A stretch of DNA of 64,000 bases from an uncultured Planctomycetota bacterium (GTDB taxonomy: Bacteria; Planctomycetota; Planctomycetia; Gemmatales; Gemmataceae), in NCBI GenBank assembly GCA_963849325.1, contig CAWKHF010000012.1, positions 1,312,001 to 1,376,000 on the forward strand, written 5' to 3'. Under the pieces are notes generated by a model that was not told the origin of the DNA, did not search any database, and was given only the letters and a program-made list of their open reading frames with translations. Position numbers and translations under genes: made by a program. Position 1 is the first letter of the stretch; each line of letters opens with the position of its first letter. Of this stretch, positions 5,915 through 13,876 are shown piece after piece.

Positions 5915-6133
5915 TTACTTGACAACGCCCTTGATCTTTTCCGCGGCGGCGTGGAGGACGCCCTCGACCTTCTCGACCGCCTCCTTCGCCAGCTCCTTGA
6001 CCTTTTGCGTCAGTCCTTGTTTCGGGGGAGGCGCGCTCTCGGACGCGGCCGCCCTCTGAAGCAGCCGGTTCTCCAGTCGTTTACGCCGCTTCATGCGGGC
6101 CGTGCGACGCGTACCGCCTCGATTGTATCCCAT
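5915..6133 (-). CDS. Small basic hypothetical protein (72 aa)
   Basis: MGYNRGGTRRTARMKRRKRL...KIKGVVK, with a GGAAAGGGA RBS-like element before ATG 6133 and host-like codon usage. Confidence 0.7.
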   Translation of the reverse strand: MGYNRGGTRRTARMKRRKRLENRLLQRAAASESAPPPKQGLTQKVKELAKEAVEKVEGVLHAAAEKIKGVVK

Positions 6134-6249
6134 GATGAGATCCCTTTCCGTCGGAGCGGGATTGCCGAACTGCCTCCAGGCAGATCCGTACCCGCTTGGT
6201 GGATTGTAGAGGCTTTCCGACGTCCGACAAGCGATCCCGACACGGCTGC

Positions 6250-9228
6250 TCAGGCGCGGTGATTCTCGGCAGGAGGCGAGGGCAGGACGCCGCCGTCCAG
6301 TTGTTCTTCCAGCACTTCCAGCGGGTGCAGCGCCCGCCGGCCGGCCAGGTCGTTGATCTGATGACGGCAGGACGTACCCGGCGCGACCACGACCGCTTCC
6401 GGCGTCTTCTCCAGCGCCGGCAGCAGGGCGAGGTTGGCGATGCTGGACGCTCAGGTCGTAATGCTCCTTCTCGAAGCCGAACGAGCCGGCCATGCCGCAG
6501 CAGCCGGTGTCGAGCACCGTCACGTCCAGTCCGCGGCACCAGCCGCAAGCGCCGCGGCCGTGCCGCCGGCGCCGACCAGCGCCTTCTGATGGCAGTGGCC
6601 GTGCAGCACGCACGTCTCCGGCCGCGGCCGCAGCGGCAGCTCGGCAGCGTCCGTCCTGGACCTGCTCGGCCAGCCAGCCGTCGGCCAGGTGGGCAGCGGC
6701 GGCGATGCGTCCGCGTCTGCGGCCCCGGCACCAGCTCCGTCCACTCGTCGGCCAGCGTCAGCAGGCAACTCGGCTCCAGGCCGAGGAGCGGCGTGCCGTC
6801 GGCCGACGCGCCGCGCCAGGGCCGGCGGCCTGCGCCTGAATCAACGCTCGCGGCTCGGTGCAGGAAGCCCTTGCTAATCATCGGCCGGCCGCAGCAGGCG
6901 AGGTCGGCCAGCTCGACGGCGTAGCCGGCCGCTTCGAGCACGCGCACCGCGGCCCGGCCGATGGCCGGCTCGTTGTAGGTCGTGAAGCAGTCGTCCAGCA
7001 GCAGCACCCGGCCGCGCGTGCCGGCCGCGGCGTCCGGCCTGTGCCGGGCGAACCAGCGGCGGAAGTGGTCGGCGTGCAGCGGCGGCAGACTGCGGCGCCG
7101 GTCGATGCCCGCCAGCTTCTCCAGCAGCCAGCGCAGCGAGCCGCCGCTTCTGCAGCCAGTTGACCAGCGGCGCGAACGGGGCGCCGAGGCGGTTGAGCCG
7201 GTGGATGCCGGCCATGAGCAGATGGCCGAGCGGCCGCGGCCGGCCCTGATAGTAGAGTTGCAGAAACTCCGCCTTGAGCTTGGCCACATCGACGTTGCTG
7301 GGACACTCCGCCTTGCACGCCTTGCACATCAGGCACAGGTCGAAGACGTCGTGGACCCATCGACTTGTCAGTTCGCGCAGCGGCTGCTCGCCCGGACAGC
7401 GCCAGGCGCAGGGCGTTGGCCCGGCCGCGCGTGCTGTCCTTCTCGTCGCGCGTGGCGCGGAACGACGGGCACATCGTCCCGCCCTGCGTCTTGCGGCAGG
7501 CGCCGTTGCCGTTGCACATCTCGACGGAGCGGACGAAGCCCTCCTGCTTGCCGTAGTCGAAGACCGTCGGCGGCTCGGCCGGCGCGATAGCCGGGGCCGT
7601 AGCGCAGGTTCTCGGTCATCGGCGGGGCGTCGACGATCTTGCCGGGGTTGAGCAGGCTGCTTGGGGTCGAACGCCTGCCTTGACTGCGGCAGAACGCCTG
7701 GTAGACCGCCGGGCCGAACATCTTCTCGTTCCACTCGCTGCGGGCCAGGCCGTCGCCGTGCTCGCCGCTGAGCGAGCCGCCATACTCCAGTACGAGGTCG
7801 GTCACGTCCTCGGTGATGCGGCGCATGCGGGCCACGTCGCCGGGGTCCTTGAGGTTCAAGCACCGGCCGGATGTGCAGGCAGCCGACGCTGGCGTGGCCG
7901 TAGAAGGCGCCGTCGGTGCCGTGACGGTGCAGCAGGTCGCGGAAGCGCGGCGACGAACTCCGGCAGCCGCTCCGGCGCGACGGCCGTGTCCTCGACGAAC
8001 GTGACCGGCTTGCGGTCGCCGGGCATGCCGTACAGCAGCGGCATCGCCGGCCTTGCGCAGGTCCCACAGCGGATCGCGCACGGCCGGGTCGAGCGCCGGC
8101 ACCGCCGCCGTCAGGCCGGCGACGCCCGCCAAGCCGGCGACGCAAGCTGCTCGACGCGGTCGGCCACCTCGCCGGCGTCGTCGCCGCTGAACTCGACCAT
8201 GAACACCGCTTGCGGCCGGCCGCTGGATGGCCTTCATCGTGTCGCGCAGCGCCAGGTTGCCGGCGGTCAGTTCGAGCAGCAGATGGTCCATCAATTCGAC
8301 CGCGGACGGCTGCAATTCCAGGCAGGCGGCCAGCGCGTCCATCGCCGCGCCGAGCGATGGCGAACTGCGGCACGAGCAGGCCGCGCGCCTTGCGGCCGCG
8401 GCACCAGCCCCAACTTCCGCCTCGGTGACGACGGCCAGCGTGCCCTCGCTGCCGACGAGCAGCTGGTGCAGCCCGACCGGCTGCCGGCCCTCGTTCAAGC
8501 CCGCCGACAAGGACGTCGAGGTTGTAGCCGCTGACGCGGCGCAGGATGCGCGGGAAGCGGCGCACGATCTCGTCGCGCTCGTCGCCGGACGATGGCGCGC
8601 ACTTGCCGGTAGATGCCGCCTTCCAGCGTGCGGCGCTCGGCCGCGGCGCTCCCACTCGGCGGCGTCGACGGGGCCGAACTCGACGCCCGGCTGCCGTCGG
8701 CGAGGACGACGTCGAGGCGGCGGACGTGGTCGATGGTCTTGCCGTAGACGATGGAGCGCGAGCCGGCCGAGTTGTTGCCGATCATGCCGCCGAGGTTGGC
8801 CCGGCTGGCGGTGGCCACGTCCGGCCCGAACTGCAGGTCGTGCGCGGCCAGGGCGCGGTTGAGCGCGTCGAGGACGACGCCGGGCTGGACGCGGGCCGAC
8901 GCGCGCCGCCGGATCGATGTCGAGGATGGCGTTGAGATACTTGCTGCAATCGAGGACGAGGCCGGGGCCGATCGACTGGCCGGACAGGCTGGTGCCGCCG
9001 CCGCGCGGCCGTGATCGGCACGTGCATCTCGGCCGGCGATCTGCACGGCGGCGACGATGTCCTCGGCGACTTTTCGGGATGACGACGCCGAGCGGCTCGA
9101 TCTGGTAGATGCTGGCGTCGGTGCTGTAGAGGCGGCGCGAGGTGGCGTCGAAGCGGACCTCGCCGGCCAGGTGCTTGCGCAGGTGGCGGGCGAGACTATC
9201 GCGCTGGAGGTCGGTGAAGTCGGGTCAT
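6250..9228 (-). CDS. FAD-linked oxidase / Fe-S (CCG) oxidoreductase, YdiJ/GlcD-GlcF fusion type; heavily frameshifted
   Basis: STDASIYQIEP, GGMIGNNSAG, GSEGTL, GEHGDG, CNGNGAC, CLMCKACKAECP, CCGRP, HGHCHQKA, CCGMAGSFG, spread over several frames. Confidence 0.85.
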
Positions 9229-9237
9229 GGTGATGCC

Positions 9238-9709
9238 GGCACGTACTCCGTCAGGGCGTTTGCAGTAGCTCTTGCCAGGTAGAAACGCGCAGCAAGCGTA
9301 CGCTCATGCGTTCCAGGCGTTCCAGATCGGTGATGCTCTCCACAGCGAGGCGGACATTCACGTCGGCCTCGCCGAATCGTTCGCGTCCCAGGAGGAGCAA
9401 CATCTTGTGCAGCGCCTTGGCCTCGCCTTGCTCGAGGATGTACAGATAGGTGTCCGATTCCGTCATGGCACGTACTCCGTCAGGGCGTTTGCAGCAGTTC
9501 TTGCCAGGTAGAAACCTCCTGCACTCGCTCAATCATACGTTCCAGGCGGCTCCAGATCGGTGATGCCCTCCACGGCGATACGGACATTCGCGTCGGCTTC
9601 GCCGAATCGTTTACGCCCCAGGAGGAGCAAAATCTTGTGTGCCTCCTTGGCTCCCCCTTGTTCGAGTATGTACAGATACGTATCCGATTCCATCATGGCA
9701 GCTACTCCG
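9238..9709. repeat. Tandem ~229-bp direct repeat (2 copies plus a third RBS segment)
   Basis: 9251-9479 matches 9480-9709. The boundary motif GGCAxxTACTCCG occurs at 9238, 9467 and 9697. Confidence 0.9.
9251..9466 (-). CDS. Stand-alone 71-aa copy of the Rpn C-terminal domain (RpnS-like)
   Basis: MTESDTYLYILEQGEAK...STWQELLQTP, 57/71 identical to the C-terminus of the upstream gene. Has its own CGGAG RBS. Confidence 0.75.
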   Translation of the reverse strand: MTESDTYLYILEQGEAKALHKMLLLLGRERFGEADVNVRLAVESITDLERLERMSVRLLRVSTWQELLQTP

Positions 9710-10329
9710 TGAAACAGGGGAATCAGGCGATCACGTGGCTGACGCAGGCCCGACAACACGAAAAACGCGGTCGCCAGCCTGGCCACTTCCGACGGCGGCG
9801 CTTCGGCCTGGATGCGCTGCAACAGACGATCAATCGCGCCGGGCAACGTCTCTTCCAACGTCGCCCCTTCGGGCAGCCGTCCCAGCGGAGCCAACGGCAG
9901 CGTTCCCAGGCCGCTTTGCAGCCAGACGGCGATGGGCACTTCCCAGACGCGGACAATCTCGAATCGAAACGTCAACTCGCCGCGTCCCGGACGGCCTGCG
10001 TAGTGAACCGTTCCCGTCAGGTCCGAGCGATCCGCTCGCGGATGAAGCAGGACCGCGATGCTGTGTACCGGCAAGCCGTACTGATGGTACAACAGGGTAT
10101 TATACATCAGCAAGCGCTGCGGCAGATGCGCGTCCGCGCCGCTCTGGAAATCGATGTGCAAGAGGCGAGCGCCGATCTGCAAGACGATGTCGGCGAACGC
10201 CGAGACCGTGGATAAGTCCGGCGTGAGCAGATGGATCGGTTCGGTCGGCGGCTCATCGAGGATGGTGAGCCAATCGGCCGGATGGTTCCGCACCAGATCC
10301 TTCAGGGTCGCATCAAAGCGCAGGGCCAT
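9480..10329 (-). CDS. Rpn/YhgA-like PD-(D/E)XK nuclease / putative transposase; one extra base near 9548
   Basis: FDATLKDL, ADIVLQ...LLHIDFQS, RLLMYNTLLY...LPVHSIAVLL, VRVWE, LPLAPL. GGAGG RBS before ATG 10329. The true stop at 9480 is inferred from the tandem copy. Confidence 0.8.
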
Positions 10330-10427
10330 GCACGGTCCTCCAGGCGAGACGCCGCGGCGTCCGCCAACGACAGGATAGGATCGTCCGCGGTAATCGTCGA
10401 AGGGTTGGTCAGACGGAGGTGCGAGCG

Positions 10428-11299
10428 ATGACACTTGAGGAATCTTTCATCCAGGCCATCCGCGAAACCCCGGCCGACGACACGCCGCGCCTCATTTACG
10501 CCGACTGGCTGGAGGAGCATGGCCAGGCGGATCGCGCCGAGTTCATCCGTCTCCAGTGTCGGCTCGCTCGCACTTCGGACACAGGCTCGGAACGGTCTGT
10601 CCGGATGGGGCGCGCCGAGGAGCTGTTGCGCCGGCACTGGCAGGAGTGGGTTGGGCCTCTCCGCGCCATCGTCGGGCCGTGGCGCGATCGCTACGGCGAA
10701 AGCTGGATGGGCGAGGACTACCACCCGGATGCATTACGCTATCACTTCGGGCGCGGCTTCGTGTCTGCCCTTGCGCTGGACGCCGAAGACTTTCTGCGCC
10801 ATGCCCGCGACCTGAATCGTTTGACGCCCCTTTTCATGCTGACCTTATGGCGAGCGGGACGCTGTGCCCGCAGCCTGGCGAACACCCCGCAGCTGCACGG
10901 ATTATCCGGGCTGGCCTTCGCGGATTATTACGACGCCCCTCTGACGGCGGGCGACGCGGTGGCGCTGGCGTCTTCGCCCTACCTGGACGGCCTGTCCGTG
11001 TTGTATCTTGGGGGGAACTCGCTGGGTGATGAGGGGGTTGAGCGCCTGATGAAGGCACCGTGGCTTACGGGTCTGACGCACCTCGACCTGTCGGACAACG
11101 GTCTGTCCGATCGCGGGGCGCGGCGCTGGCCGAATCGCCCGGTTTGGTCAACGTGCAAACACTCCGGCTGCGGAGAAATTACTTCTCTCTCGCCGGGGTG
11201 GCCGTCCTGGCCGGCTCCCCAAGCCTTCGCCGCATCTCTCGCCTGGAGTACGATCCTCCCGGCGAGAACATCCCGACGCCAGGGAGGGCACACGCATGA
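10428..11299 (+). CDS. TIGR02996 domain protein with leucine-rich repeats; frameshift near 11125
   Basis: FIQAIRETPADDTPRLIYADWLEE...RAEFIRLQC, RGFV, LxxLxLxxNxLxDxG repeats. Confidence 0.85.
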
Positions 11300-12954
11300 A
11301 TCACGAACAAGCCTTTTTTCAAGCGATCCGCGACGAACCGGACGACGACACGCACCGGCTGATCTACGCCGACTGGTTGGAGGAGCAGGGGGGGGCCGCC
11401 CGCGCTGCGCGAGCCGCTTTCATTCGCGCCCAGTGCCGGCTCGCCGTCCTGCCGGCCGGCGACCCGGCTCGCGACCCCCTCGAAGACGAAGCGGCCGACC
11501 TGCTGGCCGAATATGAGGACGAATGGACGCAGCCGTTGCGCGGCATCGCCGAACAATGGCAGTTCGCTCGCGGCTTCGTCGAGAGCATCTCCCTCCGCGG
11601 CGAAAACTTCTTGACGCACGCCGAACGTCTCTTCGACTTCGCCCCCGTGCGGGCCGTCCACTTGCTGATCCATTTCCGCGACGTCCCCCATCTGGCCGCC
11701 TGTCCGAGTCTGCACTGGGTCGAGCAGTTGGATTTCCGCCGCTGTCATCTGCACGATCGCGCGCTGCAACAACTGCTGACCTCGCCCCATCTCGACAGGC
11801 TGACCGCGCTCCATCTTGCCGGCAACGGCATCACCACGGCGGGAGTGCAAGCACTGGTTCGCTCGCCCCTGCTGGGTCGCTTGCGCCATCTCGACCTCAG
11901 CCGCAACGCCGGTGTCGGCGACCGGGCCGTGCATCTACTGGCCGGGGCGCCGGCGGCGTCATCCTTGGAAGAATTGGGCCTGGCATCGACCAATGCTACC
12001 GCGACCGGACTGGAGGAACTGTTTCGCTCGCTCCATCTGCCTCGTCTGGTAAAGCTCGACATCTCCGGTAAACGCTTCGCCCTCGCGCAGCTGGCCTCGT
12101 GGATGAAAAAGCTGGCCGAGTCGAGGTTGCTGAGCCAACTCCGCAGCCTCGACCTGAGTGAGGCGATCGACCCCCTGGCGTTGCCCCTCCTGATCCTCTC
12201 TCCCGCCGTGGCGAACTTGCGCGAGCTGCACCTGCGCGGCATCGGCCTGGAGGGAGACGACGTGGCGCCGCTGGCGGAATCACCCTATCTGGAGGGCTTG
12301 AACGTCCTCGACCTGCGGAAGAACAATCTGAGGAGCGAGGGAGCGCGAGCGCTGGCCGGCTCGCCTCATCTGGTCGGTCTGATCTCCCTGGACATCAGCT
12401 CCAACAATATCCGTGACACGGGTGCCACGGCGATCGCGGAGTCTTCTTGCTTGAAAAGGCTGTCCGTGCTGGACCTCGCCCGCAACGGCATCGGCGGACC
12501 CGGACTGCAATCCCTGGCCGCCTCGGTGAATCTCGGCCATTTGCGGACGCTCAACCTCGCTGGCAACTTCATCGGCGGCGACAGCGTGCGTACCCTGGCC
12601 GAATCCTCTCACCTAGGCCGGCTGGTGTCCCTTGACCTCAGCGATGCCTATCTCGAAGAGGACAGCGGCCGCGCCCTGGCGTCGTCCGCGAACCTGCCGC
12701 GCCTCGCCACGCTTCGGTTACAGAAGAACCTCCTCGGCGACGGCGGCGCGAAGGCTCTGGCTCACTCGCCGCACCTGAAGCGCTTGACCATCCTGAACCT
12801 CAACGACAATCGCATCGGCAAGGCCGGCGCCGAGGCGCTGTCTACCGCGCCGTTGTGGCGGCACCTGCGGGAACTCGACCTGCGCGGCAACGTCTTCACC
12901 GATACGCAGGAAGCGCTGCTGCGCAGCCGGTTCGGCGCGGCCGTGCTGCTGTGA
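11296..12954 (+). CDS. TIGR02996 domain protein with a long LRR solenoid (552 aa)
   Basis: AFFQAIRDEPDDDTHRLIYADWLEE, then >12 repeats of ~28 aa of the LxxLxLxxNxIGxxGAxALA type. ATGA overlap with the previous gene. Confidence 0.9.
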   Translation: MNHEQAFFQAIRDEPDDDTHRLIYADWLEEQGGAARAARAAFIRAQCRLAVLPAGDPARDPLEDEAADLLAEYEDEWTQPLRGIAEQWQFARGFVESISLRGENFLTHAERLFDFAPVRAVHLLIHFRDVPHLAACPSLHWVEQLDFRRCHLHDRALQQLLTSPHLDRLTALHLAGNGITTAGVQALVRSPLLGRLRHLDLSRNAGVGDRAVHLLAGAPAASSLEELGLASTNATATGLEELFRSLHLPRLVKLDISGKRFALAQLASWMKKLAESRLLSQLRSLDLSEAIDPLALPLLILSPAVANLRELHLRGIGLEGDDVAPLAESPYLEGLNVLDLRKNNLRSEGARALAGSPHLVGLISLDISSNNIRDTGATAIAESSCLKRLSVLDLARNGIGGPGLQSLAASVNLGHLRTLNLAGNFIGGDSVRTLAESSHLGRLVSLDLSDAYLEEDSGRALASSANLPRLATLRLQKNLLGDGGAKALAHSPHLKRLTILNLNDNRIGKAGAEALSTAPLWRHLRELDLRGNVFTDTQEALLRSRFGAAVLL

Positions 12955-13039
12955 GCGCTCATCCAGGCTGGTCAGGAGCGCACGGCGGAACCTTACAATG
13001 GGTGACGTGTTGCTTGCCCCGGATCAGGGATGCGGACGG

Positions 13040-13876
13040 ATGACTCGATCCCACGCCGATGCGTTTCTGGAAGCGATCCTGCAAAATCCCGACGACGATA
13101 CGCCGCGCCTGGTTTACACCGACTGGCTGGAAGAGCAGGGCGATGCTGACAGCGTCGCTCGCGCGGAGTTCATCCGCATTCAGTGCGCCCTAGCCAGCGG
13201 ACACTTCCCGCCGCGACGGCGAACGGAAATGAATAGACGCCAGCAGCAGATCCTTCATGAGCGGGGCAAGGAGTGGGCACACCCCCTCCGCCGGCTGGTG
13301 AAAGGCTGGGAATTCCATCGCGGTTTCATCGATGAAGTCGCCATAAGGGGCGATACGTTTTTCGCTCATGCGGATCGACTCTTTCGCCGCGCCCCCATCC
13401 AGCACCTGCGTTTCTGGCCTCGTCTGCGGCCCTATTCTTCCGGCTCGGTAATCAACATTCCCTTCAGCGAGCCAATCAACACGGCGGTGTTGGCGGACAA
13501 TGAACATCTCCGCCGCCTGCGTTCCCTCGACCTCAGCTGGCACAACCTGGAAAGCCGACACCTACGCGCTTTGATCGTATCGACGCACCTGACCGGCCTC
13601 ACCTCGCTGACCCTGGCGTATAACCGCATCGGCGACAGCGGCATCCGGGCGCTGGCCGAAGCTCCGCTGCTGGCGCAGTTGAGGCAACTGAACCTCTATC
13701 GCAATGACATCAGCACTGGCGGCGTGCGTGCGCTCGCTCAATCTCTGGAAAGACTGGCTCGCACTTCCGAAGGGTTACGCCTGCGAATACTCGATGTGCG
13801 CGGCAACCCTATCAGCGCTGCCGGTCGTCACCTTCTGGGCGATTCGCCGCTGTTGCAGCGTGTGGCCTGCTGGTAG
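13040..13876 (+). CDS. TIGR02996 domain protein with a short LRR array
   Basis: AFLEAILQNPDDDTPRLVYTDWLEE, RGFI, about 4 LRRs. Confidence 0.88.
   Translation: MTRSHADAFLEAILQNPDDDTPRLVYTDWLEEQGDADSVARAEFIRIQCALASGHFPPRRRTEMNRRQQQILHERGKEWAHPLRRLVKGWEFHRGFIDEVAIRGDTFFAHADRLFRRAPIQHLRFWPRLRPYSSGSVINIPFSEPINTAVLADNEHLRRLRSLDLSWHNLESRHLRALIVSTHLTGLTSLTLAYNRIGDSGIRALAEAPLLAQLRQLNLYRNDISTGGVRALAQSLERLARTSEGLRLRILDVRGNPISAAGRHLLGDSPLLQRVACW

Follow-up and report, generated by a model that had tools for sequence, protein, structure and literature searches.

The closest described systems are the Rpn nucleases of E. coli. According to PMC10400941, the small RpnS proteins are made either within the rpn genes or from a separate downstream gene, which is sometimes annotated as DUF4351. 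As such downstream copies the article names ypaA (rpnESs), which is expressed, and rpnCSs, and it describes the downstream rpnSs as having independent origins and as disappearing when they are deleted or become fused to the N-terminal domain. A second copy is also noted in a commentary (PMC10400984).

The locus analyzed here lies in a stretch of 64,000 nucleotides, referred to below as the window. Like RpnE-YpaA and rpnC/rpnCSs of E. coli (PMC10400941), it starts with a long PD-(D/E)xK gene that has an internal Shine-Dalgarno (SD) element and ATG; behind its stop the SD segment is repeated and the C-terminus occurs once more as a free-standing copy. The E. coli rpnE-ypaA junction, a stop followed by the repeated SD segment and an ATG, has the same anatomy as positions 9482-9464 of the window. 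Independent local origins, loss by deletion or fusion and variation of a four-residue repeat, the last reported there as a known Rpn feature, are likewise shared with the rpnE and rpnC systems of that article. A reading of the sequence alone (the sequence-only reading) had described an extra, diverged antitoxin cassette behind the gene. Free-standing downstream copies are not new, since rpnSs are already in PMC10400941 and the rpnE-ypaA junction is identical in layout. The architecture is already known, and the window locus is a distant new example of it, not a new system.

Unlike RpnE and RpnC, to which no direct sequence similarity was detected, the window protein carries D-x-Q instead of E-x-Q and a C-terminus of the DUF4351 type, and its two C-terminal copies share the number of repeats and differ by substitutions at predicted interface positions. 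A further point of comparison is provided by the Rhs and CDI polymorphic toxins, where orphan downstream C-terminal modules can recombine into the full-length gene. In those systems the toxin part varies and the immunity gene is separate, whereas here the predicted antitoxin or oligomerization part varies and has its own start.

What appears to be new is a branch within the Gemmataceae in which such cassettes are common and C-terminal types seem to be exchanged among long genes. Literature searches on this planctomycete branch (DUF4351, Rpn, RpnS or cassette, YdaD with Gemmata) found no paper, and planctomycete names are absent from two supplementary files of PMC10400941, whose Dataset S1 or GitHub table may list the genes. 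The branch would extend the gene-within-gene antitoxin design to a large group of planctomycete proteins that standard Rpn models miss, and its codon usage provides evidence of internal starts at a great distance from the E. coli and C. difficile cases that have been tested. PMC10400941 leaves open both the function of downstream RpnSs and the driver of C-terminal variation; a locus found in three states, whose two C-terminal types differ in residues of the predicted interface, lends itself directly to tests of specificity and swapping.

Anatomy of the locus

The features of the locus, all on the minus strand of the window, are:

9480-10329, minus strand: long gene, an Rpn/YdaD-like PD-(D/E)xK nuclease (RpnL-like) as predicted from fold and residues
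9697-9709, minus strand: internal SD segment CGGAGTAGCTGCC, whose GGAG (9708-9705) lies 8 nt before ATG 9696 and is supplied by a GGA codon for glycine
9480-9696, minus strand: small protein predicted to be made from within the long gene (RpnS-like; of the DUF4351 type in homologues), with 71 codons provided that the break is an error
9548-9549, minus strand: single surplus base, a frameshift in the long gene relative to the cassette and three related copies
9467-9479, minus strand: 13-nt junction from the stop to the cassette ATG, CGGAGTACGTGCC in sequence, with GGAG 8 nt before ATG 9466
9251-9466, minus strand: free-standing, intact 71-aa cassette ORF (RpnSs-like), dN/dS 0.24 against the intragenic copy
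9238-9250, minus strand: third 13-nt segment, CGGAGTACGTGCC, the 3' end of the repeat unit, with GGAG 17 nt before the oxidoreductase ATG 9228

The long gene has an SD of its own, GGAGG, 7 nt upstream of ATG 10329. As assembled, its ORF runs from 10329 to 9529 (minus strand; 266 aa, stop TGA 9531-9529), and if the break at 9548-9549 is a sequencing error it has 282 codons and ends at TGA 9482-9480. The frameshift is probably an error of sequencing or assembly, because the six closest homologues among the matches listed are 282 aa long (211 + 71), and because in this indel-rich assembly the neighbouring oxidoreductase of 979 aa falls into 9 tblastn pieces in changing frames and further conserved genes are split as well. 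We consider it very unlikely that the gene is truly frameshifted and the locus decaying, with a nuclease minus its last helix and a cassette that was merely left behind or acts as an orphan antitoxin towards paralogues or incoming alleles. The extra base is present in the assembly, and four of the six other paralogues in the same genome (G000) are intact through their C-termini, so that errors are not everywhere; but the break is a doubled C, the adjacent oxidoreductase and other conserved genes are split too, the 22 further codons past it still match homologues, and all of D6, D47, D60, Q62 and R72 are intact in the long gene. A scan of 9100-10500 for sigma-70 promoters and for terminators gave zero of each, the same as in shuffled sequences.

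The sequence-only reading had read through the probable error without mentioning it; read in this way, both small ORFs are as it had described them. The SD segment at 9709-9697 does precede an ATG at 9696 that is in frame with the long gene (codon 212), and behind the stop the second segment (9479-9467) leads into an intact, separate ORF of 71 aa at ATG 9466. That the internal ATG stands 71 codons from the end of the gene is correct when reading through the break, whereas as assembled the distance is 55 codons; the 14 amino-acid differences between the copies, five of them at residues 55-60, are likewise recovered if the two codons at the break are disregarded, but not from the assembled frame. 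The repeat unit measures 229-230 nt, with 84-85% identity between copies. No Pfam model, DUF4351 included, matches the window cassette.

The third segment, said to lead into the oxidoreductase as a ribosome-binding site, is present at 9250-9238. A role as the oxidoreductase RBS was nevertheless rejected and is unlikely: the spacing is 17 nt against 8 nt at the other two, and most orthologues with an empty site have no such element.

The long protein and its family

The AlphaFold model of the long protein has a pLDDT of 89.5, and structural comparison ranks the NucS endonuclease first among its matches (Z 9.3, rmsd 3.0 over 99 residues), followed by many PD-(D/E)xK nucleases. NucS/EndoMS (PDB 2vld) and the other PD-(D/E)xK nucleases share only the core fold with it, at 14% identity, and NucS/EndoMS has neither the helical domain nor an internal small protein. 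A Foldseek search returned no match at E ≤ 0.001, and a PDB sequence search with the family profile returned no hits. The predicted catalytic set is D6, D47, D60, Q62 and R72. Its spacing parallels D11/D63/E82/Q84/R94 of RpnA, which requires D11, D63, E82 and Q84 according to PMC5350276, with Asp replacing the catalytic Glu in the window protein; the mapping follows the order of the motifs, not a significant direct alignment. In the alignment of 98 family genes D6 is found in 97, D47 in all 98 and Q62 in 93, while position 60 is D in 43, N in 29 and E in 26.

The window protein and the family member P0002 match neither TIGR01784 nor PF04754. Twelve of 70 family members reach TIGR01784, at E ≤ 0.1 only and with a best value of 4.9e-4, short of the curated cut-off; none of the 70 matches PF04754, and the family profile gives no significant alignment to the single sequences of E. 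coli RpnA and RpnE. The connection to Rpn runs through cyanobacterial Rpn proteins with DUF4351 (COG5464, YdaD-like). Compared with 23 of these homologues taken together, profile A2 matches over the full length (99.9%, E 6.5e-36, 260 columns), and 7 of 8 tested lie above the TIGR01784 cut-off, whereas the planctomycete branch, about 25-34% identical to them, does not. The five predicted catalytic residues align with cyanobacterial D3/D44/E59/Q61/R71, and the D, D, (E/D)-x-Q and R motifs, the internal M-x-E-S segment and the repeats are all shared. DUF4351 is matched by 49 of 70 long proteins and by 15 of 29 C-terminal segments (E ≤ 0.05). Among the matches listed, the homologues with a taxon name are Gemmataceae; many are labelled 'predicted transposase YdaD' (JGI) and a single one 'RpnC/YadD family' by NCBI. 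YdaD is the name of COG5464.

Because the family profile matches proteins that themselves pass TIGR01784, and because the window protein misses the models, sequence comparison places it as a distant branch of the Rpn group and not as a member of TIGR01784. The label 'Rpn-family' is thus justified in the wide sense of COG5464, reached transitively via the cyanobacterial homologues and in keeping with the PD-(D/E)xK fold and an RpnA-equivalent catalytic set with Asp for Glu, but not in the strict sense of TIGR01784 or PF04754.

A subgroup of 29 of the 98 family genes, including one of the same genome (G000 C6:159782), has D58, N60 and D72 instead of H58, D/E60 and R72, which amounts to a rearranged or altered active site.

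Internal starts across the family

The family profile, built from 70 of the 120 homologues listed, has matches in 100 of 151 Gemmataceae genomes, and the branch comprises 799 clusters at E ≤ 1e-30. The genome of the window alone holds 15 matches, with seven long genes and one free-standing cassette, that of the window. To this family we compared the internal start in a sample of 98 full-length genes, drawn from 30 + 60 genome loci that were top-ranked profile matches, and so a non-random choice, plus 6 others. Leaving aside eleven genes without the Met pattern and one duplicate gives the set of 86 used for the internal start.

An SD-like word stands at -17 to -5 of the internal ATG in 80 of these 86 genes; elsewhere in them it precedes 12 of the 312 remaining in-frame ATGs, and it stands before 9% of codons overall. 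Four codons ahead of the internal ATG, the glycine is encoded by GGA in 74 of 84 cases; for other glycine codons before G in the same genes the count is 35 of 355, and genome-wide it is 14%. The nominal p of 1e-45 for this bias is overstated, the genes being related. In several of the eleven excluded genes the same GGAG is followed by GTG or by an ATG at a shifted position, and all seven long genes of the window's genome have an internal SD (six GGAG, one AGAG). As far as codon usage can tell, a functional internal SD is the best explanation for a synonymous preference for GGA that is kept in many genera.

The C-termini also vary in length in a regular manner: 82 of 91 are offset by whole four-residue units, in keeping with the repeat variation in the first helix of the small Rpn proteins, and the orthologues G190 and L002 each have one extra four-residue unit.

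Tandem arrays of two and three full-length family genes are found at L030 (G136:C165) and L180 (G066:C93), respectively. One paralogue in the window's genome (G000:C6:397141-398018) is split between N-terminal halves by about 90 nt of unrelated sequence, either an insertion or an assembly error.

Free-standing cassettes and the states of the locus

Counting cassettes behind paralogues, as the sequence-only reading had proposed, gives the single one already mentioned in the window's genome and, across the family, a C-terminal copy behind 27 of 94 genes, the window included (genes with at least 500 nt downstream). Of 29 such copies, 18 appear intact and 16 pass the SD test, which picked the wrong start in three more.

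The window's own copies differ by 35 substitutions, corresponding to dS 0.48 and dN 0.115, and their ratio of 0.24 means purifying selection and a diverged cassette that is real; pooled over 19 pairs dN/dS is 0.31. Positive selection at codons 55-60 is not supported: dN/dS is 0.26, synonymous sites are as dense there, and dS is saturated. The cluster of differences at these codons looks like a replaced tract.

We see next to no chance that the second copy is a mis-assembly, or a recent and neutral duplication. The assembly is indel-rich, but 35 substitutions with this dS and dN are far from a neutral recent copy, cassettes recur behind more than a quarter of the genes counted, and the independent, syntenic contig L001 has the gene, a cassette of the same type and the oxidoreductase in the same order as the window.

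In the C-terminal tree, made with a quick version of the search, the cassettes are not one clade, and the starred branches force at least 11 changes. Most cassettes sit near their own upstream gene, a pattern also reported for E. coli; that of the window shares a clade of 16 rows with its upstream gene (support 97). Tandem cassettes have thus arisen repeatedly in the family. The window cassette combines the attributes of an RpnSs: a separate, intact ORF behind the stop of an rpn gene, its own SD, and a local origin.

The locus occurs in three states: gene with cassette (window, L001), gene alone (G190, and the near-identical G184/L002/L060) and empty site (G185, G186, G188). In G190 a similar GGAG element lies directly behind the single stop. 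The GGAG microhomology at the locus may either predate the duplication or be the scar of a deletion. A duplication driven by recombination between these short homologies, as had been suggested, is plausible here given the element in G190, but does not generalize: microhomology is not required for cassettes, because others in the family start 13-190 nt behind the stop, one of them carrying part of the N-terminal domain.

At L003:1721-2215 two C-terminal copies stand behind a long gene, apparently fused in one reading frame.

Exchange of C-termini among long genes

The cassettes of the window and of L001 have E29, S55 and a hydrophobic residue 56 in common, which are absent from their upstream copies. 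C-termini of this cassette type (type B) also end several long proteins, namely P0003, P0004, P0005, P0009 and P0108, and that of G190. The cassettes of these two loci, window and L001, cluster with P0004, P0005 and P0108 in the C-terminal tree (support 89, unstarred), and a second clade with support 93 has the same pattern. The types were named after the C-terminal sequences had been seen and before the N-terminal tree was seen. In the N-terminal tree a single clade of the five type-B carriers is rejected (p-AU 0.001). Because these carriers are grouped by their C-termini yet are not one clade by their N-terminal domains, the trees point to recombination or conversion of C-termini among long genes.

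The idea that the cassette serves as a swap-in C-terminus thus gains some evidence for exchange, but not for a clean swap: single-breakpoint fusion tests are not significant in 7 of 8 comparisons, and the eighth reaches p 0.013, uncorrected. By eye, G190 looked as if the 5' part of one window copy had been joined cleanly to the 3' part of the other, but a permutation test was not significant (p 0.17).

These observations bear on whether the cassette, instead of being an expressed antitoxin, acts mainly as a silent donor from which recombination draws C-terminal variants. Several long genes with cassette-like ends, the rejected clade of the five N-terminal domains and the occurrence of partial cassettes or cassettes without SD are what such a donor would leave. 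The window cassette, however, retains SD, spacing, ATG and frame under purifying selection, RpnESs of E. coli is expressed according to PMC10400941, and the C-terminal types themselves were defined post hoc, on tree support of 88-89 without stars. A mainly silent role is therefore unlikely in our estimation. With odds clearly short of even, the Gemmataceae cassettes may be a working diversification system, in which an expressed second C-terminal allele with a different binding surface, kept behind the nuclease gene, would protect against alleles that carry it and would periodically be recombined into the long gene, so that specificity would switch by exchange of cassettes and not by repeat number.

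Predicted binding and proposed mechanism

A model with 2+2 chains, built from the intact long protein of L001 and its own cassette, scores 0.67, while the best of three controls scores 0.00. Of solved pairs, 116 of 157 reach the mark set for binding; of mismatched pairs, 2 of 215 do, and it can be passed by close cousins. At least 94% of contacts are common to the runs, and the pLDDT of the partner is 86 or higher. The model, for which alignments were custom-made, is that of the L001 pair, not of the window's, and it supports, as a prediction, binding of the cassette to the long nuclease. In the predicted interface the first helices are paired, and the small protein places its N-terminus against residues 190-203 and close to 61-64, next to D60-x-Q62.

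The C-terminal domain has 22 positions in the predicted interface, and nine of the 14 differences in the window are among them (p 0.006). Across 17 other pairs the proportion of positions that differ is 45% within the interface and 30% outside it, and family-wide variability is 0.48 at the interface against 0.42 elsewhere. This enrichment of differences is suggestive only, because the non-interface set includes the buried core.

We consider it likely that the locus is a toxin-antitoxin system of the Rpn kind, with a predicted nuclease gene, a small protein from an internal start and a duplicated, diverged cassette as a second antitoxin. The toxin/intragenic-antitoxin design that the sequence alone had suggested finds support in the predicted fold and residues, the constraint on the internal SD, the four-residue repeats and the modelled binding. 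From the anatomy, conservation, codon bias, locus states and selection described above we infer translation, nuclease activity, toxicity, neutralization and an anti-phage role as follows. Ribosomes would start at 10329 for the long nuclease, at 9696 for the small protein and at 9466 for the cassette. The first helix of each small protein would pair with its counterpart in the C-terminal domain of the long protein, and the free N-terminal ES-TY segment of the small protein would be laid on residues 190-203, beside D60-x-Q62. By analogy with RpnA, B, C and P2 (PMC10400941), the long form would be a toxic DNase held by its cognate small form until a trigger, again by analogy phage infection, frees it. 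The cassette would have been born by local tandem duplication and then kept by purifying selection, would add a second antitoxin, possibly of different specificity, and could likely replace or convert the C-terminus of the long gene by recombination, giving rise to C-terminal variants.

Alternatively, the long and short products could have a role outside defence, for example in a non-toxic DNA-binding or recombination complex with the small protein as a structural subunit. The change of the active-site motif from E to D or N, the housekeeping neighbourhood and the many paralogues per genome all fit such a role, and housekeeping roles are left open by Zhong et al. (PMC10400941). We still think it quite improbable, in view of the patchy presence at one locus within a genus, the variation of four-residue repeats and a design shared with tested Rpn systems.

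Neighbourhood

Rpn systems tend statistically to adjoin defence genes, but the neighbours at the window locus, TIGR02996 repeat genes and the YdiJ-like oxidoreductase, form no defence island, and PADLOC assigned none of five proteins tested there.

At 10428-13876 (plus strand), divergent from the rpn-like gene, lie three tandem genes with TIGR02996 and leucine-rich repeats. Their number varies among syntenic loci, and the first copy in the window is apparently frameshifted near 11110-11150. On the other side, 6081-9228 (minus strand) encodes the YdiJ-like FAD/Fe-S oxidoreductase, which measures 979 aa in L001 and matches NF049975 below the cut-off; in this assembly it has many frameshifts, one of them right behind ATG 9228. 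Many orthologues without the rpn-like gene (L194-L200, L204, L212, L215, L219) have GACAAT or TACAAT a few bases before the oxidoreductase ATG, often with TTGCC upstream and without an SD, which looks like a leaderless promoter.
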